NCBI GenBank assembly: GCA_963707505.1
Contig: CAVPQB010000006.1
Coordinates: forward strand, 512,001-576,000
DNA: 64,000 bases
Direction: 5' to 3'
Origin: an uncultured Gemmatimonadales bacterium
GTDB taxonomy: Bacteria > Gemmatimonadota > Gemmatimonadetes > Gemmatimonadales > Gemmatimonadaceae
Position numbers and translations under genes: made by a program. Below the pieces are notes generated by a model. That model worked only from the letters and a program-made list of their open reading frames with translations. It was not told where the DNA came from and did no database searches. Numbering within the stretch: the stretch's first letter is position 1; every line of letters starts with the position of its first letter. Shown piece by piece: positions 12,524 to 58,624 of the stretch.

Positions 12524-12589
12524 TAGGGGTTTCCCCTAGCGCCTTTCCAGTTTCCCCCGACTGAACGGGCGGGCGCTCGCTGATAGGTT
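12524..12589 (+). promoter_or_regulatory. Phased regulator boxes and -10 upstream of the multicopper oxidase
   Basis: TAGGGGTTTCCCCTA (12524-12538), TCCAGTTTCCCCCGA (12546-12560, +22 bp), TAGGTT (12584-12589). Confidence 0.7.
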
Positions 12590-12624
12590 GCGGAAGATCC
12601 TCCACAACCTACGGGACGAATATC

Positions 12625-13734
12625 GTGAGCAGGTCGCCCATCAATATCGAAACCATGGAAAATGCAGTGAATGCCGTTGTATCGCGGCGTGAGTCGCGGC
12701 GTTCATTTCTTCGCAACAGCGCAGTTGCCGCGGTGGCAGGAACGCTGGTGAGCGCGTGCAAGCCCGCTGGTGCATCCGAGCGCTCGCCGGAAGTAGTCGC
12801 AAAAGCGGCAACGGTGGTATCGCCGCCTGTCGCGTTTGGCGCCGACGACGTGAGCGCTGCGTCGATCGCCGCTGCCGACGCGATGGACAAGATGCACGAG
12901 GCCGGCATCAAGGCATTCCCGGCCAGAAGCAAGGGACGCGGTAATCAACTTCTCGCACCACGTATCGAGCGTGGAGTGAAGGTATTCGACCTCACTGCAA
13001 AGAGAATGCAGTGGGAAACTGAGCCGGGGAAGGTTACAGAGGCGTGGGCGTACAACGGAATGGTTCCCGGTCCGATGATGCGCGTTCGCGCGGGAGACCG
13101 CGTTCGGGTCAACATCAAGAACGAATTGCCGGAGTCCACGTCCATCCACTTTCACGGTGTTGAGCTCGCAAATTCCCAGGATGGAGTGCCGTTCATAACG
13201 CAGCCTCCCATCAAGCCGGGCGAGAGTTATACGTATGAGTTCGTTCCGCCGAATCACGGCTCGCACATGTATCACTCGCACCACAACTCCACCAAGCAGG
13301 TCAGTCTCGGTCTGCTCGGCGCATTCATCGTCGAGCCAAAGGACAGTTCGGAAGAGCCGCACGCGGACGTCGATCACGTACTGATTCTGAACGACGGGCT
13401 GAACGGCTTTACCATCAACGGTAAGGGGTTTCCAGCTACCGAGCCGATCGTTGCCAAGCTCGGGCAGACGGTGCGGATCCGTTTCATGAATGAAGGGATG
13501 ATGATCCACCCGATGCACCTGCACGGCATGCACATGACGGTGTTCGCCAAGGACGGGTGGGCTCAGCCGCAGCCATGGAAATGTGATACCCTCAACGTGG
13601 CCCCTGGTGAGCGCTGGGACGTACTGGTGAAGTGCAACAACCCCGGCACCTGGGCGTTCCACTGTCACATTCTGCCGCACGCGGAGTCGGAGCATGGAAT
13701 GTTCGGAATGGTGACGGCGCTGATTGTGAAGTAG
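12625..13734 (+). CDS. Tat-exported two-domain multicopper oxidase (type-1 Cu in domain 2)
   Basis: SRRSFL Tat motif; HFH, YHSH, HPMHLH, HCHILPH..M Cu motifs. Start may be 12655. Confidence 0.85.
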   Translation: MSRSPINIETMENAVNAVVSRRESRRSFLRNSAVAAVAGTLVSACKPAGASERSPEVVAKAATVVSPPVAFGADDVSAASIAAADAMDKMHEAGIKAFPARSKGRGNQLLAPRIERGVKVFDLTAKRMQWETEPGKVTEAWAYNGMVPGPMMRVRAGDRVRVNIKNELPESTSIHFHGVELANSQDGVPFITQPPIKPGESYTYEFVPPNHGSHMYHSHHNSTKQVSLGLLGAFIVEPKDSSEEPHADVDHVLILNDGLNGFTINGKGFPATEPIVAKLGQTVRIRFMNEGMMIHPMHLHGMHMTVFAKDGWAQPQPWKCDTLNVAPGERWDVLVKCNNPGTWAFHCHILPHAESEHGMFGMVTALIVK

Positions 13735-13791
13735 CCAGGGGCAGGCGACGGGCAGGTAGTCATCTTCGTTGGTCATGGTAGCTTTATAGCC

Positions 13792-15390
13792 ATGACCAAC
13801 GAGAGTCAGGCCAGCGCCGACCATACCACCCCGGGCAGTCCGACCGAGTCACCATCGCGGCCGCCATCTGCCGGCATGTACGAAAGGATTCTGGAGGTCG
13901 CGGCGGATGCGATTATCACGATCAACGAGGCACAGGAGATAGTGCATTTCAATCGCGGCGCGGAGCAGATTTTCGGATACCGGAAGGACGAAGTACTGGG
14001 GACAAACCTGAACAATCTGTTGCCGCCGCAGTTCCGCGCGAGCCACGCCGCATATGTCGTCGCGTTTGGCGATTCCACTGAGACGGCCCGGCTCATGGGT
14101 CATCGGCGTGAAGTGTTCGGACTCAGGAAGGATGGAACGGAGTTTCCAGCCGAAGCCTCGATCCTGAAGCTGGATGCGCCGGATGGCCGCCGGCTGTATA
14201 CCGCTCTGGTACGCGATGTGACCGATCGCAAGCGAATGGAAGCGCACCAGCGGTTTCTCGCGGAGGTCGGAATCGCACTCAGTCGCTCACTCGACTACGA
14301 AGCGACGATTGCGTCGGTGGCGCGCCTTCCCGTGCCGACGCTTGCAGATGCCTGTGTTATCGAAGTGATCGACGAGTTGGGGGAGATTCATCGGGCGACG
14401 TACGGCAGCGCCGAACTGTTGAGCGGAGCTGCATCTTCCGATGCAAAGAGGCAGGAATTACCCCTTACCGCGCGCGGCCAGCCGGTGGGCGTGTTGACGC
14501 TACTACACGCCGGCTCGTCACGCGGCAACGACCGGGGCGATGCGATCATCGCAGGCAATTTTGCCGCGCGTGCAGCGCTCGCGATCGACAACGCACGCCT
14601 CTATCAGCACGCGCAACGCGCGACCGCCGCGAGAGACGAGATACTGGGAGTCGTATCACACGACCTCAGGAATCCACTGAGTGCGATAGCGATGTGTTCG
14701 CGGGTGCTCGTGGACACACCCCCTGCCGATGCTGGCGCGCGGCGCGACCTGGCGAAGACCATACACGAATCGACAACGTGGATGTCGCGCATGATTCAGG
14801 ATCTGCTCGACGTTTCTGCGATTGAAGCGGGAGTACTATCCGTAATCTGCGATAGCGAGGATATCGGCCAGATCGTGACACGGGCAGCTGGACTCTTCAC
14901 GCGGAGAGCGGCCGATAACGGTGTCGCCCTCGTAGTCGCAGTGGAGGAACCGCTGGCGCGCGTGTCCGCAGACGCCGAGCGAATGGCACAGGCCATAGCA
15001 AACCTCATAGGGAACGCGGTGAAGTTCACCCCTTCAGGCGGCCGCGTCTCGATCGATGCGCGCACGCGTGGCGGAGTCGTCGAGGTTTCCGTGGCGGACA
15101 CAGGACGCGGGATCGCCGAAGCGGATATTCCATTCATTTTCGATCGATTCTGGCATACACGCGTGTCTGCAGCCGGAACAGGCTTGGGACTGGCGATAGC
15201 GAAGGGAATCGTCGAAGCACATGGTGGAACCATTGCGGTTGGCAGCAAGATCGGAGAAGGAAGTCGTTTCACCATCAGCCTGCCGCGCGAGGGTGCGTCG
15301 GCTGACCGAAACGAAAGTCGGGGACGTTCAAAAGCAAACCCATTGACAGCAGGAGGCGGCGATGACGACCCAGTCAGACTCGGGGCATGA
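13792..15390 (+). CDS. PAS-GAF(short)-HisKA sensor histidine kinase
   Basis: PAS (FNRGAEQIFGY..GLRKDGTEFP), H-box VSHDLRNPL, NLIGNAVKFT, DTGRGI, GTGLGL. Confidence 0.9.
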   Translation: MTNESQASADHTTPGSPTESPSRPPSAGMYERILEVAADAIITINEAQEIVHFNRGAEQIFGYRKDEVLGTNLNNLLPPQFRASHAAYVVAFGDSTETARLMGHRREVFGLRKDGTEFPAEASILKLDAPDGRRLYTALVRDVTDRKRMEAHQRFLAEVGIALSRSLDYEATIASVARLPVPTLADACVIEVIDELGEIHRATYGSAELLSGAASSDAKRQELPLTARGQPVGVLTLLHAGSSRGNDRGDAIIAGNFAARAALAIDNARLYQHAQRATAARDEILGVVSHDLRNPLSAIAMCSRVLVDTPPADAGARRDLAKTIHESTTWMSRMIQDLLDVSAIEAGVLSVICDSEDIGQIVTRAAGLFTRRAADNGVALVVAVEEPLARVSADAERMAQAIANLIGNAVKFTPSGGRVSIDARTRGGVVEVSVADTGRGIAEADIPFIFDRFWHTRVSAAGTGLGLAIAKGIVEAHGGTIAVGSKIGEGSRFTISLPREGASADRNESRGRSKANPLTAGGGDDDPVRLGA

Positions 15391-15847
15391 TGCAGGAGAG
15401 CCGGATGGTGCGAACCCCGTATTCCGCAAGCTCGATCGCGAGGAGATGGAGCAGCTTCTCGCTCGTAACAACGTCGGGCGGATCGCATTCTCACTGCACG
15501 ATCGTGTGGACATAGAACCGATCAACTACGTGTTCGATTCGGGCTGGATATATGGCCGTACGAGTCACGGTACGAAACTCGCCACGATCGCGCACCATCG
15601 CTGGGTTGCGTTCGAGGTGGACGAGGTCCACGGCATGTTCCAGTGGTCAAGTGTGGTGGTCAAGGGTGCATTCTATCTGATAGATGCGGACACATCGATA
15701 CGGCAGGATCCTGCGTTCAATCGCGGCGTCGACCTGCTTCGGGCACTGATACCTCAAACGCTCACGGCCAACGATCCAACTCCGTTCCGCAATTCGGTGT
15801 TTCGCATTCACCTTGACGAGGTCACCGGCCGCGCGGCGAATGGATAA
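15362..15847 (+). CDS. Pyridoxamine 5'-phosphate oxidase-like (split-barrel flavin-binding) protein
   Basis: LLARNNVGRIAF, PINY, GTKL, VAFEVDE, WSSVVVKG. Confidence 0.8.
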   Translation: MTTQSDSGHDAGEPDGANPVFRKLDREEMEQLLARNNVGRIAFSLHDRVDIEPINYVFDSGWIYGRTSHGTKLATIAHHRWVAFEVDEVHGMFQWSSVVVKGAFYLIDADTSIRQDPAFNRGVDLLRALIPQTLTANDPTPFRNSVFRIHLDEVTGRAANG

Positions 15848-20236: not shown

Positions 20237-20353
20237 AAGGTAGAAGCCCGGCGTCGCTGGCGGTGTCGGTATTTCCCTGAGATGGCGACGGAAGTTCCCT
20301 TATGAAGAATCCGATGATGCCCGACGGTGGGGTGCCGACCGCGGTCGTAGATT
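20237..20353. promoter_or_regulatory. Divergent promoter with three phased boxes
   Basis: Boxes 20266-20280 TCGGTATTTCCCTGA, 20288-20302, 20310-20324 TCCGATGATGCCCGA; -10 TACCTT (minus, 20242-20237) and TAGATT (plus, 20348-20353). Confidence 0.75.
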
Positions 20354-24447: not shown

Positions 24448-24603
24448 ACGATATGACCGAGAGCTATCCGTGTCTGTCAGTGCTTACCTGATTTGCGGTA
24501 GGGGTAATTCCGATACGCGGATCGTGGGCGTCCATGGTACTGGAATGCCCTACAATCATTCCGGGAACGGCCGACAGACGGTGGGTGCGCGCTGAAGCAG
24601 ATT
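24448..24603. promoter_or_regulatory. Divergent promoter with two pairs of phased boxes
   Basis: 24477-24491 TCAGTGCTTACCTGA, 24499-24513 TAGGGGTAATTCCGA, 24538-24552 TACTGGAATGCCCTA, 24560-24574 TCCGGGAACGGCCGA; -10 TATCGT (minus, 24453-24448) and CAGATT (plus, 24598-24603). Confidence 0.7.
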
Positions 24604-24630: not shown

Positions 24631-25620
24631 ATGTCCAGCTCCGCTTTCTCCGCTGCCGCGACACCGGCGGAAGAATTCCACGGCATCACTCGTCGCGGGT
24701 TGCATCCGGCACTCGATGCTGTGTTTCCACTGTTGCTGGCAATCACCGATGACGAGCGCGCGGCGCCTGCCATCGGCATGACACGTGAGCTGGCGCGCAC
24801 TCACGGTGCGATTCCGACGGTGTTGCGCGCGCTTGGCAGAGATCACGAGACGGAAGTACTGATCCAGCCGTTCGCTGGTTACGTCGCAGAGGGCGCACTG
24901 AGCCCGGAGTATCGTGACGAATCCAGGGACATGTTGCAGAGACAGGTGACTGCCGTGGCTGGTGACGTGCGATGGCAGTTCGAAGTCGCCGATGAGCCGC
25001 CGGTGGAGGCGATCGTCAATCATGCGCGACAGTTGCGCGCCGGCCTGATCGTCATCGGACTGCGACGGCACGGCGTGATGCATCGCGTGGTCGTTGGGGA
25101 CTTGCTTCGATCCGTCGTCCGTCTGGCTGGCGTACCAGTACTTGCGGTTCGGCCGGATCTCGTTGCTCTGCCAAGGCGCGTCGTCGTCGCGATCGACTTC
25201 GGCGAGGCGAGCGTTCGCGCAGCGAGCATGGCACGACACATCCTTGCTGACGATGGCGAAATGCATCTCGTACACGTGGTAACCAACCCGACGCATCAGG
25301 ATTACTCGCCGACGGGCATGCCAGGAACCGGCACCTTCTCACGCGCGATGCGCGACCTGACATCCATGATCGATGATCTGAGGCCTGGGCCGGGGATGAC
25401 AATTGAGTCCCATGTGATCGAGGGCGAGAGAGAGGGGGCAATCGACGGCTTCGCCGAACGCGTTCGCGCCGATCTGCTCGCGGTCGGGAGTGATGAACAC
25501 CCGTTGCTCGACAGACTGGTAAACAGAAGCGTGTCGATGGGGCTTGCCAGAACGGCGCATCGGTCGATGCTCGTGGTTCCTGCCAAGTCCCACGATCACA
25601 ACCCGACGGGCGCTACGTAA
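24631..25620 (+). CDS. Tandem-domain universal stress protein
   Basis: AGLIVIG, VPVLAV, VVVAIDF, ADLLAVGS..SVS..MLVVP. Confidence 0.85.
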   Translation: MSSSAFSAAATPAEEFHGITRRGLHPALDAVFPLLLAITDDERAAPAIGMTRELARTHGAIPTVLRALGRDHETEVLIQPFAGYVAEGALSPEYRDESRDMLQRQVTAVAGDVRWQFEVADEPPVEAIVNHARQLRAGLIVIGLRRHGVMHRVVVGDLLRSVVRLAGVPVLAVRPDLVALPRRVVVAIDFGEASVRAASMARHILADDGEMHLVHVVTNPTHQDYSPTGMPGTGTFSRAMRDLTSMIDDLRPGPGMTIESHVIEGEREGAIDGFAERVRADLLAVGSDEHPLLDRLVNRSVSMGLARTAHRSMLVVPAKSHDHNPTGAT

Positions 25621-25636
25621 ACACGCTACGTAAACA
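25611..25636. repeat. 13-bp exact tandem duplication
   Basis: CGCTACGTAAACA twice, spanning the USP stop codon. Confidence 0.8.
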
Positions 25637-25654
25637 GCGTAAAAAGGAGGACCG

Positions 25655-26629
25655 ATGAGCACCACAGGAAAGGACTACATGGACGAGCTGGACGCGCTGG
25701 TCGAAGAGCCGTCAGCTGCACCGGAGGCTCTCACGGCATCCGGAGAGTTTGGCGTTCTCCTGGCGCTGACGGAGGACGAGCTTGCGGATTCAGCCGTCGC
25801 CGTCACGCGCGCGCTGAACGAGCGGCGTGGCGCCGGGCCTTCCGCGCTCTATGTCATCGAGGTCGGTACGTCGGTGCCGGAAGCGGCGATCGTCATCGTC
25901 TCGATCGAGGAGGATCTGCAGGATCCGCGAATACGTGAGCGGCAGACGTTGGAGATGCGAAAGACGCTGCACCTGGACCACGGTCCTGCAGCGGCGTGGC
26001 CGCTGACACTCGCAGTAGGCAATGTTGCGCGAGTCGTGGTCGAGCACGCCGAGCGGAGTGGTGCACGGATGGTTGTACTGGGATTGAATCGCCACGGCAC
26101 GGCCGGCCGTGTGATGGGCAAGGATACAGTCCGCGGCGTGATGGCGATCAGTAGTGTGCCGGTGCTGGCTGTACGTCCGGAACTGACGGACCTTCCAAAA
26201 CGGATCGTCGTGCCAGTCGACTTCAGCCGAGCCAGCATTCGCGCGGCGCACCTCGCGCGGCGCATCGTCGATGAACATGGAACGATTCATCTCGTGTTCG
26301 TAGAGCCCTCGACATCGCAGGCCAGGACGGAAAGCGACGAAGCGTTCGAGCTGATTCATGCGCGTGGAGTCGAGGCAGCGTTCAAGGAGCTAGCAGCGGA
26401 GCTCTGGCCATCGGTTGGCGTGACGATCGATACCGTGGTGCTTCGGGGAAGCCCCGTCGCAGAGATAACCCGCTTCGCCGCGGAATGCGATGCCGATCTC
26501 ATAGCCGTTGGAAGCCAGCGGCATCCATTTCTCGATCGATTACTACTCGGCAGCGTAGCCAAGGCTATCGCGGCAGATGCCAGATGGTCGGTTCTGGTGA
26601 CGCCGCCGGACCGGGCCGGCCGTCACTGA
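25655..26629 (+). CDS. Tandem-domain universal stress protein
   Basis: AGGAGG RBS; IVVPVDFS, ADLIAVGS, LLGSVA, SVLVTP. Confidence 0.85.
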   Translation: MSTTGKDYMDELDALVEEPSAAPEALTASGEFGVLLALTEDELADSAVAVTRALNERRGAGPSALYVIEVGTSVPEAAIVIVSIEEDLQDPRIRERQTLEMRKTLHLDHGPAAAWPLTLAVGNVARVVVEHAERSGARMVVLGLNRHGTAGRVMGKDTVRGVMAISSVPVLAVRPELTDLPKRIVVPVDFSRASIRAAHLARRIVDEHGTIHLVFVEPSTSQARTESDEAFELIHARGVEAAFKELAAELWPSVGVTIDTVVLRGSPVAEITRFAAECDADLIAVGSQRHPFLDRLLLGSVAKAIAADARWSVLVTPPDRAGRH

Positions 26630-27625: not shown

Positions 27626-28866
27626 TCAGTGCGGCTCCTTGCCAGTTACCACGCGCCAGGTATCGCGCGCTATGAGCAGCTCCTCGTCCGTCGGTATTAC
27701 CCAGAGCTGGATTCGTTCTCCCTCGCGGTCGAAGCGACCTTCCATACCGCGCTCGAGCGCCGAGTTGCGACTGGTATCGATCCGTATGCCGAGCCAGTCC
27801 ATTCCGGTACAGATACGCTCCCGGACAGCAGGGGAGTTCTCGCCGATGCCGCCTGCGAATACTATCGCGTCCGCACCGTTCATGGCGGCGAGATATGCAC
27901 CGATGTATTTCCGCGCCCTGTAACAGAAGACGTCTATCGCCAGTCGCGCGCGACGGTCACCATTCTCGTCGGCTTCTGCGAGAAGCTCGCGCATGTCGGC
28001 GGTGAGACCGGAAAGTCCAAGGAGACCCGACTGCTTGTTGAGCATTACGTCCATGTCGCGACTACTGAGTCCTTCCTTGGCGCCAACGTATTCGAGAATT
28101 GCCGGATCGATGTCTCCCGAGCGCGTTCCCATCACAAGTCCCTCGAGCGGGGTGAATCCCATCGACGTATCGATGGATTCTCCGTTCACGATCGCGCATG
28201 CAGACGCACCATTCCCAAGGTGCAGCGTGATGATGCGCGTCTGCTCGCGAGTCCTGCCGGTGAGCTGGCGATAGCGATATGCGACGTACCTGTGTGACGT
28301 CCCATGAAATCCATAACGTCGTACCCTGTATCGCCGGTAGAGCTGGTACGGAATGGCGTACAGGTGTGCGGTCTCCGGTATGGTCTGGTGAAACGCGGTG
28401 TCGAATACCGCAACCTGCGGCACGTTTTCACCGAGAACTTCGCGCGCGGCCGCAATACCGAGCAGATTGTGCGGATTGTGCAGCGGTGCGAGGTCGATGA
28501 GTCGCTCGAGGTCACTTCGGACGGCCGCGGTGACGAGAGTTGATCGTGTGAACTGCTCACCGCCGTGTACTACCCGGTGGCCGACGGCTTCGATGTCGGA
28601 TGGCGCAGTAATATCGACACCAGAATCAGCTCCAGCCATCCAGCCGATGACGCGCTCCACTGCCTCAGCATGATTGCGGATCTGGGCTGTGGTGTGCGAC
28701 GGCGGCGCTGATCCTACACCGAGAGTGAGGATTGCCTCGCCACCAATGCGCTCGATCTGACCCATGGCGAGCCGGCGGTCACGATTGCCGTCGATCGCGC
28801 CTGATCGGTATCGATGAGCTGAAACTTGAGCGACGACGATCCGACATTCAGGACCAGGATCTTCAT
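27626..28866 (-). CDS. ackA: Acetate kinase (apparent frameshift near 28800-28830)
   Basis: [14 protein letters not shown] from ATG 28866 in another frame; [35 protein letters not shown]. Confidence 0.92.
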
Positions 28867-31272
28867 GAGGCGGCGTGTCCGGTCCAACGCCAGTCGCGAA
28901 TCTCGGGCATGTCGTCGCCGTACTCATTGACATAGGCACGATGCTCGACAAGTCTGCGAGCGGAAGAGATCAGCTGCCACAGATGCAGCCGCGTGATTTC
29001 TGAGACGCGGTACACGTGCGATGACGTCCAGTGCCAGGTGGAATCGGTCCATCTCATTGAGTACTGTCATGTCGAACGGTGTCGTGGTCGTGCCCTCTTC
29101 CTTGTAACCGCGCACGTGCATGTTGTCGTGGTTTCTGCGGCGATACGTGAGACGGTGGATCAGCAGCGGATAGCCGTGAAATGCAAATACTACTGGCCTG
29201 TCTTTCGTGAACATCGCATCGAACTCATCATCCGGCAAGCCATGCGGATGCTCGCTGTCAGGCTGCAGAGCCATGAGGTCCACGACGTTGACCACACGCA
29301 TGCGGAGGTCGGGTATGTGAGTCCGCAGCAGATCCACGGCCGCAAGGATTTCGAGTGTCGGCACGTCGCCGCAGCATCCGAGCACCACGTCCGGGTCGGC
29401 GCCACCGTCATTGCACGCCCAGTGCCAGATGCCGAGCCCCTTGCTGCAGTGTGCCGCCGCTGCATCGATGTCCAGCCATTGCGGTTCAGGTTGTTTACCG
29501 GCAACAATCACGTTCACATAATTCCTGCTGCGCAGGCAGTGGTCCGCTACCGACAGCAGAGTATTCGCATCTGGCGGGAGATACACACGCACCACATCAG
29601 CCTTCTTGTTCACCACATGGTCCAGAAATCCGGGATCCTGGTGACTGTTGCCGTTGTGATCCTGTCGCCACACATGTGACGTAAGAAGGTAGTTGAGCGA
29701 TGCGATGGGCCGGCGCCACGGGATGTTGCGAGCAGTGGCGAGCCATTTCGCGTGCTGGTTGAACATCGAGTCCACGATATGAATGAACGCTTCGTAGCAG
29801 GAGAACAGGCCGTGCCTGCCGGTAAGCAGATATCCTTCCAGCCATCCCTCGCACATGTGCTCGCTCAGCACCTCCATCACCCTGCCATCGGGTGCGACGT
29901 GGTCATCACTCGGAAGTATTTCCGCCGTCGAGGTACGATCGGTGACCTCGAATAGTGCATCGAGTCTGTTGGAGCTTGTTTCATCCGGCCCCATGATTCG
30001 AAAATTGCTCGAGCTCATGTTGAGTCGCATCACATCCCGAAGGAAGTTGCCGAGTATGCGGGTGGATTCTGCGTCGACTGCGCCCGGCGCCGGTACGGCC
30101 ACCGCGTAGTCACGGAACGCCGGCATTGCGAGATCCTTGAGCAACAGCCCACCATTGGCATGAGGATTGGCACTCATGCGGCGTGTTTCTGTGGGCGCGA
30201 TGTTGGCGATCTCCGGAATGAGTGTGCCTTTCTCATCGAACAGTTCTTCAGGTCGGTAGCTCTTCATCCACTGCTCGAGCAATGCGACATGCCCGGGATT
30301 GTGTGCAAATCCGGTAATCGGTACCTGATGCGAGCGGAACGATCCCTCCGTCTGCTTTCCGTCGACGAACTTTGGACCGGTCCAGCCCTTGGGCGAACGG
30401 AGGACTATCATCGGCCATGGCACCCGATGCGTGAAGCCGTGCTCGCGCGCATCGTGCTGGATGCGCTTGATATCAGCCAGCACAGTATCCATGGTCGCCG
30501 CCATGAGCTGATGCATCACATGCGGGTCGTCGCCGGAGACGAAACGCGGATCGTAACCGTAGCCTTGCAACAGCGACGTAAGCTCGTCGTCGTCGATTCG
30601 CGCGAGAACCGTAGGGCCTGCGATCTTGTAACCGTTGAGGTGCAGAATCGGGATCACTGCGCCGTCGCGTGCGGGATCAAGAAACTTGTTGGAATGCCAG
30701 CTGGTCGCGAGCGCGCCCGTTTCCGCCTCACCGTCGCCGATTGCGCAGCAGACGAAGAGATCCGGATTGTCGAACACGGCTCCGTACGCATGGAGCAGTG
30801 AATATCCCAGCTCTCCGCCTTCGTGGATGGATCCAGGTGTTTCCGGAGCGACGTGACTGGGAATGCCTCCGGGGAAGGAGAACTGCTTGAACAACCGTTG
30901 GAGTCCGTCAGTATCGCGGCTTACCGCTGGATAGACCTCGCTGTACGTCCCCTCGAGATAGGTGTTGGCGACGACCCCAGGTCCGCCGTGGCCCGGACCA
31001 GCGACGAAGATCGCGTCGATGTCGTGCTTCCTGATCAGCCTGTTCATGTGCACGTACATGAAATTCAGTCCTGGAGTCGTACCCCAGTGGCCGAGCAGCC
31101 TGCGCTTGATGTGGTCGAGGCTCAGCGGTGCGCGCAGGAGAGGATTGGCGAGGAGATAGATCTGGCCTACCGAGAGGTAGTTCGCGGCGCGCCAGTATGC
31201 ATCGATCAACCCGAGTTCATCCGCGGAAAGTGGATTCCGGCTCGGCGTTTCATTCGCAATGACGGGCGTCAT
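28863..31272 (-). CDS. xfp: Xylulose-5-P/fructose-6-P phosphoketolase (apparent frameshift near 28960)
   Basis: [51 protein letters not shown]-terminus [12 protein letters not shown] in another frame. Confidence 0.95.
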
Positions 31273-32576: not shown

Positions 32577-32693
32577 AAACTAGAGAACCAGGCATCCAGT
32601 CGGTGTCAGTGTTTCCCTGAGATCGCGCAACCCGTTACCTGACACAAAATCCGGGCTTGCCCGACTGTTTGCAGAAACCCGCGCCCGTACGTT
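32577..32693. promoter_or_regulatory. Divergent promoter (DUF542-xfp-ackA operon / nos operon) with three phased boxes
   Basis: 32606-32620 TCAGTGTTTCCCTGA, 32628-32642, 32650-32664 TCCGGGCTTGCCCGA; -10 TAGTTT (minus, 32582-32577) and TACGTT (plus, 32688-32693). Confidence 0.78.
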
Positions 32694-32748: not shown

Positions 32749-34803
32749 ATGAAATCGTCGGTCAAGCTATATGCGGCTATCGGGTACGTAGGCATCACCC
32801 TGAGCGGCCTCGCGTATGCCTGCGCGCCGAGTGTCAAGACGAATGCGTCCGCAGGTCTGCTGGCCGGAGACGCTGCAACTCGAACCTACGTGCCGCCAGG
32901 CTCGTACGACGAGTATTACGCCTTCCTGTCCGGTGGCTTCAGCGGCCAGGTGACGGTGTATGGGCTCCCATCCGGTCGTCTCTTCAAGGAAATACCGGTC
33001 TTTTCGCAGTTTCCACAGACGGGCTACGGATACAACGAGGACACCAAGGCGATGCTGACGACGACTTTCGGCCAGGTGCCGTGGGACGATTCGCATCACA
33101 CGGAGATGTCGCTCACTGACGGTGTACCGGATGGCCGCTGGCTCTTCATCAACGGCAATAACACGCCACGTATCGCTCGCATCGACCTCAAGAAGTTCGA
33201 GACCGAGGAGATACTCCAGATTCCAAACGCTGCGGGTGGCCACGCGTCACCGTTCGCGACGCCGGATACCAAATACGTGGTATCAGCGACGCGCTTCAGC
33301 GTTCCGATTCCGCAGACCGATGTTCCCATCGATAGCTACAAGAAGAACTTCAAGGGAACTATCACGTTCGTCAGGGCCGATCAGCCTGGCAAGATGGACG
33401 TTGCCTTCCAGATCATGATGCCCGGATACGACTACGATCTCGGTCACGCCGGCAAGGGACCATCCGACGGCTGGTTCTTCTTCACGACGTACAACTCCGA
33501 GGAAGCGAATACGAAGCTCGAGGTGAACGCGTCACAGGCCGACAAGGACTACATCGCCGCGATCAACTACAAGCAGGCAGAGAGAGTGCATCGCTGACGG
33601 AAAGGCGAAGAAGTTCGGTGGCAGCTACGTCCACAACTATCGTGAATCCGACCACCGGAAGGTCGCGACGAGCGAGACAAAGACACGGTGTGACCATGCT
33701 GTATCCAGCGGATTGCGATGGGCTCGTGTATTACCTGCCGACGCCGAAATCACCGCATGGCGTCGATATCGATCCGTCGGGCGAGTACATAGTGGCCGGT
33801 GGCAAGCTGGCTACGGTCATTCCCGTGCACTCGTACACGAAGATGATCAAGGCGATCGCCGACAAGCAATTCGAGAAGACGATTGACGGTATTCCAGTAC
33901 TCCGTTACCAGGCAGTAATCGCAGGCGAAGTACAGAAGCCGGGCCTAGGTCCGCTACACACCGAGTTCGACGGCAAGGGCAACGCGTACACGTCGATGTT
34001 CATCTCCTCGGAAATCGTGAAGTGGAAACTGGGGACGTGGCAGGTGCTGGATCGTATTCCGGTGTACTACTCCGTGGGGCACCTGATGATTCCGGGCGGC
34101 GACAGCAAGAAGCCGTGCGGGCAAGTATCTTGTCGCGCTCGACAAGATCACGAAGGATCGTTACCTGCCCACCGGCCCGGAGGGTTCTCGCTCCGCGCAG
34201 CTGATCGACATCAGCGGCGACAAGATGAAGATGTTGCTCGACTTCCCGACGATGGGCGAGCCGCATTACGCACAGGCAGTTCCTGCGAGCCTGCTGCAAC
34301 CCGACTCGCTCAAGTTCGAGAAATTGAGGACAACCACAACCCGGATGTCACGACCGCGGAGGCCGACGGCGGAATCACACGCAACGGCAAGCGTGTCGAT
34401 GTAAAGATGATTGCGATTCGCAGTCACTTCGCGCCGGACATTCTGGAGGGTATCGAGCTTGGCGACACCGTGTACTTCCACGTCACCAACATCGAGCAGG
34501 ACTGGAACATCGCGCACGGCTTCGCAGTGTTCGGTGCAAACACCTCCGGCGTGACGCTCCCGCCGGGCGAGACGAGGACGCTAAGATGGGTTCCGCAGGC
34601 AACCGGCATCTATCCGTTCTACTGCACGGATTTCTGCTCCGCGCTGCACCAGGAGATGCAGGGATACGTTCGAGTGTCGCCGGCGGAGATGCACGTGCCA
34701 CTGATCGGCGAACATCAGCCAAGGTCGCAGGCAGACCGCAGAATGGTCGCATGCCTGCCGAGCATGGCGAGCGTGCCGAACATGGGAGCACAGGTGAGAA
34801 TGA
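32749..34803 (+). CDS. nosZ: Clade II (Sec-type) nitrous oxide reductase, several apparent frameshifts, end approximate
   Basis: YAFLSGGFSGQ, WDDSHH, NGNNTPRIARIDL, PKSPHG, GLGPLHTEFD, YSVGH, EPH, CuA motif HGF..FYCTDFCSALHQEM; no twin-arginine signal. Confidence 0.93.
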
Positions 34804-35390
34804 TGTCACGCCTCACCTCGCGAGCGTCACGGCGATTGCGTCGCTCGCTCTTGATCGGGCTCTTCTGTCCTCCCGCTGTGGCGCGTACAGCTCGTCGCGC
34901 CACAGTACCCCGAGGGACTCGGCATGCGGATCGGCATCAGCGATGTCGCGGCGGGACCATGCCGACGGATCTCGACAACATCAACGGTCTGAATCACTAC
35001 ATCGGCATGAAGCACATCACGCCGTCCGCCATTCCCGAGCTGCGGCTACATGCCGTGGATTGTTGGCGCGTCTGATACTACTCGGGCTGCATCGCCGCCA
35101 GGTGGGCAGCAGAAAGTTGCTGCTCGACCTGGATCGGCGGATTCGCCGTCCTTGCAGTGTCGCTGGACTCGTCGATTTCTGGCGCTGGGAATACGACTAC
35201 GGCCACAACATCGATTTCGAGCACGCGATAATCAAGATCCCTGGAATGACTTATCAGCCTCCACTCATGGGTGTGAAGCAGTTACTCAACTTCACGGCGG
35301 TGTCCTGGCCGGATGCCGGTGCGTGGCTGGCATTGGCTGCGTTCGGCGTGGCGCGCTGGCGGTCATCATGGCGTTCAGGCAGCCGCATCC
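34800..35390 (+). CDS. nosB: NosB-like membrane protein of clade II nos clusters (frameshifted, possibly fused to NosD)
   Basis: Fragments APQYPEGLGM, NINGLNHYIGMK, IPEL, DFWRWEYDYGHN..AIIKIPGMTYQPPL.G.KQLLNF. Confidence 0.75.
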
Positions 35391-42052: not shown

Positions 42053-42118
42053 AAGCTACGGCTGGCTACTGCTGCGTTCAGTCGGGGTAAGGTGGAAATA
42101 TCGTAAAGGAATCCCCGA
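42053..42118 (-). promoter_or_regulatory. Phased boxes and -10 upstream of the nitronate monooxygenase-family gene
   Basis: 42082-42096 TCGGGGTAAGGTGGA, 42104-42118 TAAAGGAATCCCCGA; TAGCTT (minus, 42058-42053). Confidence 0.65.
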
Positions 42119-44474: not shown

Positions 44475-44540
44475 AACTTATGCGAACAGGCATTTGACGG
44501 GTGTCGGTGTTTCCCTGAAGTAAGTGCGGCGATCTCCTGA
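44475..44540 (-). promoter_or_regulatory. Phased boxes and -10 upstream of the 4-TM/FTR1 operon
   Basis: 44504-44518 TCGGTGTTTCCCTGA, 44526-44540 GCGGCGATCTCCTGA; TAAGTT (minus, 44480-44475). Confidence 0.75.
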
Positions 44541-44944: not shown

Positions 44945-45009
44945 GTCCTACTCCTGTGATTGAAATCATTCATGGTTCAAGGCGACGTATGGAATACCTG
45001 CTACGGTGA

Positions 45010-48391: not shown

Positions 48392-48434
48392 ACGCTAGCT
48401 TGACTCCATGTGGTGAGGTGTGACGGATGTCTCA
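48392..48434 (-). promoter_or_regulatory. Crp-type box and -10 for a probably leaderless mrp transcript
   Basis: TGTGACGGATGTCTCA (48419-48434) centred 41.5 bp from the ATG; TAGCGT at 48397-48392. Confidence 0.6.
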
Positions 48435-48446
48435 CGGAGAAGAGTG

Positions 48447-49682: not shown

Positions 49683-49754
49683 AGGTCGATTCAGCTTGCA
49701 TGTAGTCACCCCGCGCCGCAGATTGCGCGCGATGATATCCATCGAGGTTGGATA

Positions 49755-50351: not shown

Positions 50352-50860
50352 TCCGCGTGGTTCTGATCGGCTCAGAATCTACTGGCAAGACGGTGCTTGC
50401 CCGGGAGCTGGCCGATCACTACCGCGCTGAGCTGGTACCGGAGTTCGTGCGCGATTTCGCCGTGCGGAAAGTATCTCCGATCGACCTCGCTGATACTGAT
50501 GCAATCGCACGTGGACAGATGGCGCTCGAGGATGAACACGCGACGCGGGCGACGCGACTGCTGATACAGGATACAGATCTGCTGAGTACCGTCGTATACA
50601 GCGGGCACTATTACGGAACATGTCCGGCGTGGATTGCCGCCGCCGCACGCCAGCGCAGGCCGGACCTGTATCTTCTACTCGAGATCGACGTACCGTGGGT
50701 GCCGGATGATGTGCGGGATCGGGAAACACGTCGCGAAGAGATGCAGCAGCTCTTTAGAGACGCAGTCGCGAAATCCGATGTGAAATACGCAGTGATCGAG
50801 GGAACATGGGAGCAACGGTCGCTGCTCGCGCGCGCTGCGATCGACCGGTTGCTCGCGTAG
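50348..50860 (+). CDS. NadR-type nucleoside kinase domain (AAA_28)
   Basis: GSESTGKT, PEFVR, IARGQ, QDTD, VPWVPDDVR; TTGA overlap with pnuC. Confidence 0.85.
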   Translation: MIRVVLIGSESTGKTVLARELADHYRAELVPEFVRDFAVRKVSPIDLADTDAIARGQMALEDEHATRATRLLIQDTDLLSTVVYSGHYYGTCPAWIAAAARQRRPDLYLLLEIDVPWVPDDVRDRETRREEMQQLFRDAVAKSDVKYAVIEGTWEQRSLLARAAIDRLLA

Positions 50861-55038: not shown

Positions 55039-55114
55039 GCGTCCATCCCGTGTGCGAAATGGGCAGAGCTCGAAGTGGCGATGCACGGACCATTTCGACA
55101 GTGCCTTCCGACCC

Positions 55115-55156
55115 AGTCTATGGCGATGAACGGTTGGCTGGAGTGACTTATGTCAC
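55115..55156 (-). promoter_or_regulatory. Crp-type box at about -41.5 of the ctaD promoter
   Basis: GTGACTTATGTCAC (55143-55156); TAGACT on the minus strand at 55120-55115. Confidence 0.7.
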
Positions 55157-55169
55157 GTTTGCAGAGCGT

Positions 55170-55892
55170 TTATCTCCCCTGAGCGCGTGCTCGCAGCTTG
55201 GCAACATCAGGAATCCGCATGCGCCCGCGCGGGAGTGATTCCACAAGGCCCGTGCGCTTGAGCTGTCGCATCGCCCGTGAAACGGATTCTCTGGCGCTGC
55301 CTATCTCCATCGATAGCTCTTCCTGTGTACGGTCGAGCTTGATCTCGATGCCGAACTGGGTGTTGGTTCCCGATCTTTCCGCGTATCCCACGAGCAGCAT
55401 TGCCAGCCGCGCAGCGACATCGTGGAACGCGAGAGTCTCCGTCACGTGAACGAGATGGCGGAGGCGCTTGCCGAGTGCACGAATTATGGCGTGGGCGATG
55501 TCCGGATGCTCGCGGTACATCGTCTCGAAGTCATCGCGCGCGAGAAACATCAGGCGTGACGGTTCCACTGTGATTGCGGACGCCGGATACGAGCCGCCGT
55601 CAAACAGCGGCAACTCGGCGACCGGGCGCCCGGGACCTTCGATGTGCAATACCTGCTCCTTGCCGTCAGGACTCGTACGATAGATGCGAACTCGTCCGGA
55701 CTGGATCACGTAGAGGCCACGGCACGCGTCGCCAGCGGCAAACAACACCCGTCCGGCGCCGAAGTCGCGCGCAACACACCGGGCCGCGAGCTGGTGAATC
55801 GCCGTGTCTTCCAGCTCCGAGAAGATCGCCATCTGCCTGAGCAGTTCGGCAATCCCGGCTGACGAATCTTCAGTCGATCTTTCCCGTATCAT
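55170..55892 (-). CDS. Crp/Fnr-family transcriptional regulator (no FNR Cys cluster)
   Basis: LYVIQSGRVRI, ELPLFDG..YPASA, TQEELS..GSARESVSR HTH. Confidence 0.92.
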   Translation of the reverse strand: MIRERSTEDSSAGIAELLRQMAIFSELEDTAIHQLAARCVARDFGAGRVLFAAGDACRGLYVIQSGRVRIYRTSPDGKEQVLHIEGPGRPVAELPLFDGGSYPASAITVEPSRLMFLARDDFETMYREHPDIAHAIIRALGKRLRHLVHVTETLAFHDVAARLAMLLVGYAERSGTNTQFGIEIKLDRTQEELSMEIGSARESVSRAMRQLKRTGLVESLPRGRMRIPDVAKLRARAQGR

Positions 55893-56668
55893 GGAGAGCC
55901 GATCCGGAGCGGCGACCACGAGGGGGGATCGCTGGCCGGAAAGCTGTCGACAGTACTGTCGCGGAATATCTCACGGTTGTCGCGCGCGCGACGTTGCTCG
56001 ATCGCGCTGTCGAACAGCGCACGCGTGGAGTCCACGCAGCTCTCGCCGACACATGTGAGCGGCGGTACGGAGACGATCCTGCGATTCCGGATCTTCGCCA
56101 TCGCGATCGGCGTACGCATACGCGTGCCGTCAGCCAGCATCATGGTCGGCGTTCCACGGACGTGATATTGCTCACGACCGATCCTGCCTTCCTCCTCGAT
56201 GGCGGCACGCGCGGCCGGACTCGCGAAGTCGCGCTCGAATCGTGCGAAGTCAAGGTCGGTTGAGCGTGCGATCTCCAGCAACACGCTGCGATCTCCGATG
56301 TTGCGGCTCTCGCCAAAGAACGCGCGTCGCACTGCGAGATCGAGCTCCATGGCGATATTCATTCCTTGCTGCCGTGCCGCCCATACTGCTTCGAATGCCG
56401 GAAGCGTGGTAGTTGGCCAGTCGGCCGCGGTGTACGGGACGAACGATGCGTCTGGCTCCTGAATCGCTGCGAGCCACCATTCCTGCTCCAGTACATCACG
56501 TGGCGGCGCCTCTCCATTGAGAAGCTCCAGCGGGAAGAAACGCGTGTATGCCAGCACGCGGCCGGCGTATTCGGGCTGAACACGATGCACGCGGACAGCC
56601 ATCACGTAGCACCAGGGACAATAATATTCGGCCCATTCCCACAATTCCGCGATCGATCGATCACTCAT
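55889..56668 (-). CDS. DsbA/FrnE-family thioredoxin-fold protein
   Basis: YCPWCY, VRRAFF, VRGTPT; ATGA overlap with the Crp gene. Confidence 0.8.
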   Translation of the reverse strand: MSDRSIAELWEWAEYYCPWCYVMAVRVHRVQPEYAGRVLAYTRFFPLELLNGEAPPRDVLEQEWWLAAIQEPDASFVPYTAADWPTTTLPAFEAVWAARQQGMNIAMELDLAVRRAFFGESRNIGDRSVLLEIARSTDLDFARFERDFASPAARAAIEEEGRIGREQYHVRGTPTMMLADGTRMRTPIAMAKIRNRRIVSVPPLTCVGESCVDSTRALFDSAIEQRRARDNREIFRDSTVDSFPASDPPSWSPLRIGSP

Positions 56669-56732: not shown

Positions 56733-56748
56733 TGTGACAATCGTCACG
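56733..56748. promoter_or_regulatory. Crp-type palindrome in the divergent dsbA-crp / DUF59 region
   Basis: TGTGACAATCGTCACG. Confidence 0.65.
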
Positions 56749-57335: not shown

Positions 57336-57366
57336 TACAAACTCCTTCGATGTCCGTCGATGTCGC

Positions 57367-58386
57367 CTAGTGCGACATTGTGGTGAACTGCTTTGGTGTT
57401 CCAACCTGCACCATCCCGACCGCGCCCTTCTCGGCGTCGGCGAATGAGTGGGTCACGAAGGGATACAGGCCTTCGCCACTCGCGTCCTTGTTGAATACCG
57501 CCTCGAACACGACTCCGCCACCAGCTGGCACCGGATAGGTCTGAACACCTTCCAGAGCATGACTCGGATTTCCGTCAGGATAGACACGATCGAATATCGC
57601 GCCGACGAGATGGAAGTCACTGTCGAAGTTCGGTCCGGCGTTCACTACATAGAAACGTACTCTGTCGCCAACCGCAACCTTGAGCGGGTGTTCCTTGTAC
57701 TGGCCCGCGCGACCGTTGAAGACAACGTAACTGGCCTGCTTTGCGCGCTCGGCGTCCCAGTCAGCCTGTACCACGCTGCTGTCGGCAGTCGGCTTGGTGT
57801 AGAACTCGCTCTGCACGATGACGAATTCCTTGTCGGCCTTTGTGCCCCAGCCATCGCGCGGATCCACGATGATCGGGAGATACATCCCCTGCATGATGTG
57901 CATGGTGACCGGCGGAGTTCCGCAGTGGACCATGAACGCGCCTGCATCGCGTGCGATGAACTCGAATGCTACCGAATCCCTGGGAAGTATCATCCGATAC
58001 GCGACGTTCGCCGCGATCTGCGCGGCGTGAAAGTCGATCGAGTGCGGCATGTTGGATTCGTTGACGACGTTCACACGAACCCGATCACCCTGCCGCACGT
58101 GTATTACCGGACCAGGCACTGTGCCGCCGAATGTCCATCCATCGTACTTCACGCCGTCCGCGATCTCTATCACGGCATTCTTGATCGGGATGCGGTATTC
58201 CTTGATGCCAGCGTCGGACGCGTCGGTCAGACGCGCGTCGTACACTGGTGTCGTGGCAGTTACGACCTTGTCGAAATCAATATGTTGCACCTTGTTCGCG
58301 CGGATCGCGTTGTCGGTGAACCCCAGTACACCAGCTGTGAGGACACCTGTTACGGCCAGCGCTGCAAGAATCTGTGTACGTGTCAT
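57367..58386 (-). CDS. nirK: Copper-containing nitrite reductase (NirK/AniA-like)
   Basis: PHSIDFH, VHC..MHIMQGM, FHLVG and VTHSF supply the type-1 and type-2 Cu ligands plus the catalytic Asp and His. Confidence 0.78.
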   Translation of the reverse strand: MTRTQILAALAVTGVLTAGVLGFTDNAIRANKVQHIDFDKVVTATTPVYDARLTDASDAGIKEYRIPIKNAVIEIADGVKYDGWTFGGTVPGPVIHVRQGDRVRVNVVNESNMPHSIDFHAAQIAANVAYRMILPRDSVAFEFIARDAGAFMVHCGTPPVTMHIMQGMYLPIIVDPRDGWGTKADKEFVIVQSEFYTKPTADSSVVQADWDAERAKQASYVVFNGRAGQYKEHPLKVAVGDRVRFYVVNAGPNFDSDFHLVGAIFDRVYPDGNPSHALEGVQTYPVPAGGGVVFEAVFNKDASGEGLYPFVTHSFADAEKGAVGMVQVGTPKQFTTMSH

Positions 58387-58452
58387 GATCTTCTCCGGAT
58401 GATGCGAGATGTTTTGTTTCTCGCGTGCGGTTGTTCCGCATGTTGCATCGGG

Positions 58453-58624
58453 AAGCTAGGAGGAATATGGCATCCGATCTGTCGGGCGAAGCTGGAAATT
58501 CGCTGCGGGAATCGCCCCCCTACGGGTAAAGGAAAACCCTACCCGGAGTGGCTCGTGTAAGGGATTCCCGTACATATTTCGTTGTGGCTCCCCGACTTTG
58601 GAGAGCCTTCGTCAGGGGTAGCTT
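58453..58624. promoter_or_regulatory. Divergent nirK / two-component promoter with multiple boxes
   Basis: 58482-58496 TCGGGCGAAGCTGGA, 58527-58541 TAAAGGAAAACCCTA, 58558-58572 TAAGGGATTCCCGTA, 58580-58594; -10 TAGCTT (minus, 58458-58453) and TAGCTT (plus, 58619-58624). Confidence 0.7.

Follow-up and report, generated by a model that had tools for sequence, protein, structure and literature searches.

Phased 15-bp boxes precede nosZ and other low-oxygen genes in the Gemmatimonadaceae and are probable operators of a two-component regulon

The window, the 64-kb stretch of a Gemmatimonadaceae genome analysed here, contains 11 promoters of like build, in which a 15-bp odd dyad (consensus TCGGGGAATCCCCGA) is repeated in tandem at a pitch of 22 bp and the centre of the proximal box lies 31 nt ahead of a -10-like hexamer (five on the + strand, six on the - strand). 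These boxes are, virtually beyond doubt, conserved cis-regulatory sites of fixed geometry. They most likely mark where a two-component regulator switches low-oxygen genes on, and the best overall explanation, to which we give a probability of about 0.7, is that they are the operators of a family-wide low-oxygen regulon. The signal precedes nosZ, whose product destroys the greenhouse gas nitrous oxide, and other low-oxygen genes in a common family of soil bacteria. No prior description of this regulon was found in the literature searched, the coverage of which was incomplete.

Box architecture in the window

The promoters, with their putative -10 elements and the same-genus or related genomes that keep them, are as follows.

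12524..12560, +, box pair 12524/12546 (spacing 22 bp; 15.9 and 13.0 bits), -10 TAGGTT 12584-12589, driving multicopper oxidase, heme-PAS kinase, Pyridox_ox_2 and SulP genes; kept in G003, G006, G014, G015, G019, G020
20237..20353, divergent, triplet 20266/20288/20310; -10 TACCTT 20242 (-) for a HlyIII-family and then a tyrosine-decarboxylase-like gene, -10 TAGATT 20348 (+) for membrane protein 20397; kept in G013, G014, G015, G016, G018, G019
24448..24603, divergent; pair 24477/24499 with -10 TATCGT 24453 (-) for yceI and genes downstream, pair 24538/24560 with -10 CAGATT 24598 (+) for two USP genes; kept in G002, G003, G006, G014, G018, G019
32577..32693, divergent, triplet 32606/32628/32650; -10 TAGTTT 32582 (-) for DUF542, cupin-like, COX1-like, xfp and ackA genes, -10 TACGTT 32688 (+) for the nosZ operon; strict pattern at the nosZ promoter in G002, G003, G005, G008, G009, G014, G015, G016, G018, G019
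42053..42118, -, pair 42082/42104, -10 TAGCTT 42058, for nitronate monooxygenase (ATG 42044, near-leaderless relative to this -10); kept in G002, G003, G005, G009, G018, with the hexamer there at 32
44475..44540, -, pair 44504/44526, -10 TAAGTT 44480, probably driving COX1-like 43989-44411 and then FTR1-cytochrome c 42125-43921 as an operon; present in G015, G016
58453..58518, -, nirK promoter, box 58482-58496 (13.2 bits), distal box 58504 (1.9 bits), -10 TAGCTT 58458; kept in G009, G012, G013, G018, G019, G020
58527..58624, +, autoregulatory promoter, boxes 58527 and 58558 (19.8 bits) and half-box 58581; -10 TAGCTT 58619 precedes the kinase ATG by 6 nt, and the transcript would be leaderless

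The genes on which the argument turns are these.

12625..13734, +, multicopper oxidase, first gene of the heme-PAS sensor operon
13792..15390, +, FixL/DosP-like heme-PAS histidine kinase P0004 (HisKA class)
15362..15847, +, Pyridox_ox_2 protein
24631..26629, +, two universal stress proteins (USPs)
27626..31272, -, phosphoketolase and acetate kinase
32749..35075, +, nosZ, clade II (Sec-dependent), in two frames in this assembly
55170..55919, -, Crp/Fnr-family regulator P0003
57367..58386, -, NirK-like copper nitrite reductase (TIGR02376 195 bits, below the 296 cut-off)
58631..59908, +, membrane histidine kinase P0001
59905..60564, +, NarL/LuxR response regulator P0002, proposed binder

The four sites quoted in the first-pass annotation of this DNA all lay at the coordinates it gave, and its 19 boxes and 11 hexamers were present. 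Nine of the 11 hexamers lay exactly 31 nt from the centre of a box that it listed, including CAGATT 24598, which it had called a near match. For TAGCTT 58458 the box that it gave, 58527, is 76 nt away, and the rule holds through an unlisted proximal box at 58482-58496. Its box 58580 was off by one; the conserved element is the half-box 58581, 23 bp from 58558, and TAGCTT 58619, previously placed at 32 bp, is exactly 31 from it.

When training withheld one intergenic region at a time, 10 promoters were each equalled by 0-3 of the 7.19 million strand-positions that lie beyond the window. A strict pattern (box, N21, TAnnnT) had eight matches genome-wide, all within the window, a location that is circular because the pattern was derived there. 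Changing the gap to any other value from 12 to 31 gave 0-1 matches per gap, and five Markov-simulated genomes likewise gave 0-1. The single box without spacing was not enriched genome-wide (47 matches versus 39-52 simulated); the signal is the spaced architecture, not the lone box. The 64-kb window contains no intact FNR box (TTGAT-N4-ATCAA) and one one-mismatch match versus 1.2 expected.

Conservation of the boxes across the family

Applied to relatives, a scoring matrix trained on the window alone recovered the 22/44-bp and 31-bp spacings. Across 555 kb of same-genus loci, some overlapping and with the three closest genomes left out, box partners lay 22 bp (47) or 44 bp (29) apart, every other spacing occurring at most three times, and TAnnnT lay at 31 (38), 32 (6), 51 (5) or 53/54 nt (11/16), the rest occurring at most three times. 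Elsewhere in the window's own genome the spacing profile was flat. The strict pattern was found in 14/21 same-genus genomes, 1/15 of other genera and 1/24 of other families, these relatives being non-independent; outside G000 there were 56 matches versus 5 for the reversed pattern and 7 for a wrong gap. It occurred in 13 of the 15 same-genus genomes with the regulator (at least 80% identity) and in one of the remaining six. An unlinked divergent site of identical geometry lies at C4:30927/31011 in G000. Family-wide, the strict pair pattern was weak (28/150 genomes versus 15/150 for the reversed control).

The nosZ upstream region carried the signal further. Among 58 genomes from other genera, a strong box preceded clade II nosZ in 45 and was absent in 13, versus 0/58 in a coding control, an expectation of 2.5 from shuffles and 102 of 2259 generic upstream windows (4.5%); nAnnnT lay 23 nt past the proximal box in 20 of the 45. 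The nosZ frame, split in this assembly, is intact (712-718 aa) in 98%-identical relatives, and the N-terminal piece, which falls below the whole-protein cut-off because of the split, scores as clade II (TIGR04246 385 bits versus TIGR04244 139 bits). Both the spacings and the nosZ boxes were recovered outside the training window, and they support a regulon that appears to be family-wide rather than specific to the island, the scope first proposed.

Two of the proposed targets need restating. No box precedes the gene for cytochrome oxidase subunit I (53149-55086), a separate Crp-type site standing there instead; the oxidase that does have boxes is the multicopper enzyme encoded at 12625. Transcription from the 44480 promoter would extend to FTR1, and the pair 42082/42104 at the 3' end of FTR1 serves nitronate monooxygenase.

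A NarL-type regulator as the candidate binder

As judged from sequence, the best candidate binder of the boxes is P0002; its recognition helix is near-invariant, its own promoter carries boxes and it is present in 67/69 nosZ genomes. Its receiver (PF00072) and GerE HTH (PF00196) domains both scored above cut-off, and the acidic-pocket, phospho-Asp, Thr and Lys residues of the receiver (D12, D13, D58, T86 and K108) were invariant in 42/42 rows. The helix reads KTVDTYKQRI/V in 34 of 35 rows and KTVETYKQRV in one, at overall identities down to 62%. P0002-type regulators occur in 126/150 family genomes (84%), a prevalence that leaves the co-occurrence test low-powered, and in 3/68 genomes outside the family. 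G021 has the regulator and lacks a strict match. In many genera boxes stand immediately before the operon that encodes the regulator, as the first-pass annotation had noted for the window, and the autoregulatory layout, half-box 58581 included, is the same in 6/6 relatives' loci shown. Conservation, co-occurrence, the recognition helix and the absence of any intact FNR box from the window together support the earlier suggestion of a non-FNR hypoxia and denitrification regulon under this protein.

By curated NCBIfam cut-offs P0002 is not an equivalog of UvrY/GacA (161 vs 280), NarL (155 vs 250) or NarP (117 vs 343). Some close relatives carry the JGI label 'NreC', and DevR was a PDB match at 5.8e-32, fifth of nine.

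Two kinases and the input signal

The heme-PAS kinase at 13792, P0004, had been overlooked in the first-pass annotation. A box-controlled FixL/DosP-like kinase of this kind accompanies the regulator, also in genomes that lack the adjacent membrane kinase. In FixL a proximal His and a distal Arg have ligand roles. The best PDB matches of the P0004 PAS domain were DosP and FixL; His85 aligns with their heme-ligand His and was present in 28/28 covering rows, while R106, aligned to the FixL distal Arg, was variable and its neighbour R105 invariant. P0004 is a likely O2 sensor. It was found in 25/29 regulator-positive and 0/7 regulator-negative family genomes, and adjoins the regulator, with no HAMP kinase alongside, in G004, G031, G078, G087, G185 and G190; in G086, G160 and G184 neither kinase lies within 10 kb of the regulator. 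The Pyridox_ox_2 gene adjoins regulator and heme-PAS kinase repeatedly across many genera.

HisKA-class kinases and NarL-type receivers make an atypical pairing, the usual partner class being HisKA_3. When the kinase core and receiver were folded together the score was 0.41 versus 0.01 for the best control, the runs sharing 79% of contacts with a partner pLDDT of at least 82. That mark was reached by 116/157 solved and 2/215 mismatched pairs, but 18 of the solved pairs and both mismatches fell at 0.60 or under. The score, which may reflect likeness to solved HK-RR complexes, lends weak support at most to the pairing.

P0001, with two TM helices joined by a short loop, HAMP, HisKA_3 and HATPase domains, invites a different reading, unlikely but deserving of weight, in which it is the sole direct partner of the same regulator, the heme-PAS kinase is a mere member of the regulon or acts indirectly, and the signal is a membrane cue (quinone redox state, proton motive force or copper). 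Its gene is co-transcribed with, and overlaps, that of the regulator; it belongs to the usual partner class, has apparently intact H-box and ATP-binding motifs and conserved TM motifs, and lies at the regulator locus in 12/20 genomes, and many targets are copper or membrane proteins. Yet no recognisable sensor domain was found in it (it has neither PAS nor GAF, and no Cys or His is conserved across its sensor part). Moreover, no orthologue was found in G031 (100% complete) or G087, and matches in G086, G160, G184 and G185 were of 32-38% only; G031, G086, G087 and G185 nevertheless keep nosZ boxes, and all these genomes keep the heme-PAS kinase.

Other binders and other roles for the boxes

It is improbable that a paralogous NarL regulator or an unlinked factor binds the boxes in place of P0002. 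A 17.8-bit box precedes nosZ in G126 (95% complete), and G010 (86% complete) has a strict match, with no P0002 orthologue found in either; a paralogue whose helix is similar, and whose locus has boxes nearby, occurs in G005, G014-16 and G019, and this assembly, at 83% completeness, may lack it. Against this, 3-5 strict matches coexist with one regulator in G002 and G003 (96-98% complete), the genome's other three GerE proteins differ in helix and lie in unrelated gene contexts, and the boxes upstream of the P0002 operon speak for P0002 itself.

The boxes 20288, 32628 and 58504, in middle or distal positions, are weak. Within the proximal box the 3' half is best kept; at 58581, which scores -7.8 bits as a full dyad, it is all that is kept. 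Such retention of one half could be expected if the proximal half-site were the -35 of an alternative sigma factor, or the boxes repressor operators, but this is very improbable, since the half-site-to-hexamer gap of 21-23 nt exceeds a -35/-10 spacer, the boxes are tandem dyads serving both strands, and the rigid -10 distance fits activator-polymerase contact.

P0003, encoded in the island and co-occurring in 13/21 same-genus genomes, was rejected as the binder, an FNR/DNR-type regulon with an odd site being the least credible reading: the dyad is odd-centred and dissimilar to Crp/Fnr sites; GTGA-N6-TCAC sites upstream of the gene for oxidase subunit I and/or of the DUF59/dsbA divergence, of which 55142-55157 and 56733-56748 are likely P0003's own, are separately conserved in 5/5 relatives checked; and the motif does not track the protein, no orthologue being found in G031 and 30-33% matches in G082, G086, G087 and G185, all with nosZ boxes.

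Proposed mechanism

Operators of a low-oxygen regulon remain our preferred reading of the boxes, with binding, activation and signal all deduced from sequence. Phosphorylated P0002 would very probably occupy each dyad of 15 bp in dimeric form, with two or three such dimers spaced 22 bp, or two turns, apart; as these would share one helix face, a strong site would help to fill weaker ones. With equal confidence, the proximal dimer, centred at about -43 with its edge at the point where a -35 hexamer would begin, would substitute for the missing -35 and recruit RNA polymerase, and a single triplet could fire two divergent promoters. Less surely, though more likely than not, low O2 would be read by the heme-PAS kinase, which would phosphorylate the regulator. 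The adjacent membrane kinase, kept in most lineages but not all, could be a second input or a phosphatase. Since both kinase operons carry boxes, positive feedback would follow. The output would comprise N2O reductase, nitrite reductase, phosphoketolase/acetate kinase, USPs and metal or cofactor genes, and would let an aerobe survive passing anoxia.

More tentatively, and at slightly less than even odds for the whole taken together, the Gemmatimonadaceae may own a two-kinase O2 switch for clade II nosZ that does without FNR/DNR. A FixL-type HisKA kinase would signal to a NarL-type regulator across the kinase-class boundary, with the sensorless membrane kinase as second input; activation would be direct, from dyads phased by two turns, and an NsrR-like repressor would add NO control at the same promoter in several genera.

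Comparison with known systems

Transcription of clade I nosZ and nirK is oxygen-dependent under Paracoccus FnrP and Pseudomonas ANR/DNR, as stated in an excerpt of 10.1101/2022.10.27.514152, and we propose the same dependence for nosZ and nirK here. FNR, DNR and NNR, however, are Crp/Fnr proteins acting on TTGAT-N4-ATCAA, of which the window has no intact copy. Excerpts of PMC8139620 describe Staphylococcus NreC as an activator of the NarL family that switches on anaerobic N-oxide respiration and recognises a GC-rich palindrome, a role like that proposed for P0002. NreB, in excerpts of PMC8774646, is a cytoplasmic [4Fe-4S] kinase that works with the GAF protein NreA; compared with that account, neither window kinase is of NreB build, no NreA-like gene was found in the P0001-P0002 operon, and the targets are nosZ/nirK, not nar/nir/narT.

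Rhizobial FixL-FixJ, like the present system, combines a HisKA kinase with a LuxR-HTH regulator, and FixL and DosP share the PAS likeness and aligned heme-ligand His. Unlike FixJ, the regulator is NarL-type; kinase and regulator fall under the equivalog cut-offs (FixL 132 vs 850; FixJ 63 vs 255 bits), and P0002 seems to regulate many promoters itself, without a FixK/Crp step interposed for nosZ.

The mycobacterial DosR regulon includes USP, SulP, pyridoxamine-oxidase-like and P-type ATPase genes; its Dev box is an even dyad of about 18-20 bp, and DevS and DosT are GAF-heme kinases. Set against this general description of the Dev box, the present unit is an odd dyad of 15 bp, repeated every 22 bp; the kinases are heme-PAS HisKA and 2-TM HAMP proteins, with no GAF-heme kinase, and the targets include clade II nosZ, nirK-like and xfp-ackA genes in a different phylum. 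According to excerpts of PMC3029386, DosR/DevR, a hypoxia regulator served by two kinases (DevS/DosT), binds cooperatively to at least two closely packed sites, the proximal one at the -35 region, with site-sharing divergent promoters and autoregulation. To that extent the likeness includes a NarL-subfamily regulator, sites packed in tandem, of which the proximal falls at the -35 region (22-bp pitch, 31-nt rule), divergent promoters with common sites, two kinases and autoregulation. Target genes and promoter layout resemble those of the DosR regulon, from which the kinases, the nosZ/nirK targets and probably the site set this system apart.

Phased boxes in the low-oxygen island

The window belongs to a genome of 3.66 Mb that is 83% complete (G000), and contains a low-oxygen island with a clade II nosZ, a nirK-like gene, cytochrome oxidase subunit I, two USPs, xfp-ackA, SulP and FTR1, together with a P-type ATPase, nicotinate salvage genes, a Crp/Fnr protein and two histidine kinases. 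The features used here are:

13792-15390 (+), FixL/DosP-like heme-PAS histidine kinase (P0004), proposed O2 sensor
32749-38290, nos operon, broken into many short frames, probably by assembly indels
50900-53010, TonB-dependent receptor gene, broken into many short frames, probably by assembly indels
55170-55919 (-), Crp/Fnr-family protein (P0003)
58631-59908 (+), membrane HAMP-HisKA_3 histidine kinase (P0001)
59905-60564 (+), NarL/LuxR response regulator (P0002), proposed binder of the boxes

Because 98%-identical relatives have open nosZ frames of 712-718 aa, the split of nosZ in this assembly is likely a sequencing error. Genes for several small COX1-like membrane proteins, DUF2249/DUF1858 proteins and an unannotated 467-aa membrane protein (43989-47276, 31392-31862, 44687-44969) are grouped in the island and co-occur in relatives. 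Loci encoding relatives of the window kinase all came from Gemmatimonadota records (16/16), mostly Gemmatimonadaceae.

The first-pass annotation had described 15-bp dyads repeated at 22 bp, centred 31 nt before a TAnnnT hexamer, in nine promoters, with two near matches; the four sites that it quoted and all 11 hexamers are where it placed them. Alignment of ten promoters on the hexamer gave the order distal box, 7 nt, proximal box, 23 nt, hexamer, with the symmetric box consensus TGTCGGGGAATCCCCGACA and a 15-bp core of 11.4 bits. Two promoters needed correction. At nirK the hexamer stands, but the box used is one at 58482 that had gone unlisted; at the P0001 promoter, where a distance of 32 bp had been given, a half-box at 58581, 23 bp from 58558, puts the hexamer at 31 as well. 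The kinase ATG lies 6 nt past this hexamer (58619-58633), as in 6/6 relatives shown, and the kinase mRNA is therefore probably leaderless. The nitronate monooxygenase gene is probably nearly leaderless (ATG to hexamer, 42044-42058).

When the box matrix was trained with one intergenic region left out at a time, for each of the ten promoters only 0-3 of 7.19 million positions in the rest of the genome scored as well, while a single box alone had no genome-wide enrichment (47 versus 39-52 in simulated sequence). The best site outside the window was a divergent pair of the same geometry at C4:30927/31011, before a gene that reads as azurin-like from its sequence. This unlinked promoter (C4:30431-33486) also serves a 518-aa ORF, which adjoins a paralogue of the membrane protein at 20397. 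A lone 18-bit box at C4:396799, 80 nt upstream of a gyrA-like ORF and with no partner at 22 bp, is either chance or a lone site. Within the island, no box pair was detected at the nicotinate phosphoribosyltransferase-like, PnuC and NadR-like genes (48420-50860).

Conservation of the boxes in relatives

Across the family, the same gene set is preceded by conserved, phased sites whose distance from a -10-like hexamer is fixed. The strict pattern of spaced box and hexamer derived in the window occurred in 14/21 same-genus genomes, 1/15 from other genera and 1/24 from other families. Outside G000 it matched 56 times, against 5 matches when the pattern was reversed and 7 when its gap was set wrongly. 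A same-genus sample of 555 kb consisted of partly overlapping loci selected for a hit, for nosZ or for the kinase, the three closest genomes being excluded; in it, strong boxes had partners at 22 bp (47 times) and 44 bp (29), every other distance occurring at most three times; TAnnnT was found at 31 (38 times), plus 53/54. Since many of these loci were picked by the pattern itself, the region upstream of nosZ is the cleaner test.

For that test we fetched 58 of the 69 nosZ-positive genomes among 150 in the family, omitting two from the same genus, five seen earlier, three of a distant nosZ type and one partial match. A box above 10 bits was present within 450 nt upstream of nosZ in 45/58, versus 0/58 coding controls and 2.5 in shuffles; the figure for generic upstream windows was 102/2259. 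Box partners were most frequent 22 and 44 bp to either side, and nAnnnT lay 23 nt past the proximal box in 20 of the 45 regions (22 nt: 4; 24 nt: 6; 25 nt: 7), the first T of the hexamer being frequently lost outside the genus. Five of seven further other-genus nosZ regions carried boxes of 15-17 bits, and none was found in G036 or G022. Upstream of nosZ in five other-family genomes there was no strong box (best 7.6 bits), an unfair test in that four of the five regions appear to be another gene. Over the 150 family genomes the strict pair pattern gave a weak signal (28 genomes versus 15 for the control, about twofold) and is not relied on. Genome tallies include G017 and G028, which are flagged unpublished, and no claim depends on either alone. 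Judged from sequence, the boxes mark a real regulon.

Candidate regulator

P0002, a NarL/LuxR regulator, scored below the cut-off of every named equivalog. Its phosphorylation residues were intact in 42/42 aligned rows, and its recognition helix (KTVDTYKQRI/V) was kept in 34/35 locus rows, duplicates included, with overall identity down to 62%. An orthologue was present in 126/150 family genomes, 67/69 with nosZ and 3/68 outside the family; as kin are not independent, no p-value is claimed. Within the genus, the strict pattern was found in 13/15 genomes with the orthologue versus 1/6 others; of the two regulator genomes without it, G012 has a matrix match and none was found in G021. Boxes lay directly upstream of the P0002 operon in many of 20 regulator loci.

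Two genomes, G126 and G010, have boxes but no P0002 orthologue. The G126 locus (L143; genome 95% complete) has a strong nosZ box and a heme-PAS-like kinase. A paralogous regulator with a similar helix occurs in five same-genus genomes. At L095-L097 (G016, G005, G019) the paralogous module comprises the regulator (57-59%), a heme-PAS kinase and USPs, with Pyridox_ox_2 in two loci; no such module was found in the 83% complete G000.

Candidate sensors

P0004 is encoded in the box-controlled operon at 12584, and the best solved-structure matches of its PAS domain were DosP and FixL. His85 aligns to the heme-ligand histidine of those proteins, and is present in 28/28 rows covering it; R105 is present in 29/29 rows, and R106, which aligns with the distal Arg of FixL, is variable.

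Alternatively, P0001 could be the sole direct partner of P0002, with P0004 merely a regulon member or an indirect contributor. P0001 is co-transcribed with P0002 and has two TM helices, a short loop, HAMP and HisKA_3; its sensor part showed no PAS/GAF domain and no conserved Cys or His, and an Atlas search with it returned HAMP clusters only. Among the 20 regulator loci, 13 held a heme-PAS kinase, 12 a HAMP kinase and four neither. No HAMP-kinase match was found in G031 or G087, and matches of only 32-38% in G086, G160, G184 and G185; all six keep the heme-PAS kinase. P0004 occurred in 25/29 regulator-positive versus 0/7 regulator-negative family genomes, and the paralogous regulators likewise adjoin a heme-PAS kinase and USPs. 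A predicted fold of the P0004 kinase-core dimer with the P0002 receiver scored 0.41 versus 0.01 for the best control (79% contact agreement; pLDDT at least 82). In calibration 0.41 was reached by 116/157 solved and 2/215 mismatched pairs, with 18 of the 157 and both mismatches at 0.60 or under. Because kinase-receiver complexes are solved, the score may reflect likeness only, and the model weakly supports the pairing.

At L115-L117 (G086, G160, G184; one genus) the regulator stands alone, and no gene for either kinase lies within 10 kb. The G086 receiver has Ala-Asp where most have Asp-Asp.

Rejected binders

P0003 was rejected as the binder: five genomes that carry nosZ boxes either lack it or have a match of about 30% identity, and it has its own likely sites elsewhere. 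No intact FNR box was found in the window, which holds two predicted Crp-type sites:

55142-55157, GTGA-N6-TCAC, before the cytochrome oxidase subunit I gene
56733-56748, GTGA-N6-TCAC, between dsbA-crp and a DUF59 gene

At least one was kept in 5/5 relatives checked, and they likely form a small second regulon of P0003. The other three GerE regulators of G000, with different helices and gene contexts, were also rejected.

Proposed mechanism and a second layer

We propose that phosphorylated P0002 dimers bind cooperatively, two helical turns apart, and activate from a position near -43, substituting for a -35 element. P0004 would read low O2 and P0001 would supply a second input; with both kinase operons boxed, positive feedback would be expected. 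Operon extents are predicted from gene order. G. aurantiaca can reportedly express nosZ with O2 present (10.1101/2022.10.27.514152). A pure low-O2 switch does not explain this behaviour, which might reflect a second kinase or a threshold set at high O2. The same species is described as needing partly oxic conditions to begin N2O reduction (PMC9530729), and no mechanism was found in the literature consulted on this requirement.

An AT-rich 11-1-11 palindrome was found in 18/58 nosZ upstream regions versus 1/58 coding control. Some of the 18 are box overlaps, and about ten are one class over the -10, such as AAGATGCAAGTAATATGCATCTT in G087 (L186); others are L151 (G185), L184 (G082), L181 (G086) and about six more loci. 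In 4/4 palindrome genomes checked, nosZ has a divergent Rrf2 gene beside it, and two Rrf2 proteins scanned were nearest to RirA/NsrR, below both cut-offs. The NsrR consensus is described as an 11-1-11 repeat of AAxATGCATTT (PMC8175989). The Rrf2 (NsrR/RirA-like) protein is likely a NO-responsive repressor layered on the activator. The window nosZ promoter has no 11-1-11 palindrome.

Significance and comparison with known systems

Gemmatimonadota nosZ is reported among the most abundant in soils (PMC10581226), and its mRNA tracked N2O reduction in four soils (R2 0.91; PMC9530729). The searched literature yielded no regulator or promoter element for Gemmatimonadota nosZ, the consulted part of PMC9530729 had no match for 'promoter' or 'upstream', and we found no published account of the motif or regulon; Gemmatimonas transcriptome or regulon tables in supplements could bear on this novelty. 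These results put forward a site, together with candidates for the regulator and the sensor, through which a major N2O sink could be switched on, and the matrix can be used to predict the regulon in MAGs.

NreC is the label borne by some close relatives of the regulator, and the candidate sensor P0004 resembles FixL. Membership in DosRST, FixLJ or NreABC failed on the features tested. The predicted architecture resembles the DosR regulon, for which cooperative tandem sites, the proximal one at -35, two kinases and autoregulation are described (PMC3029386), and it suggests that an unrelated soil phylum has a dormancy programme of the DosR type.
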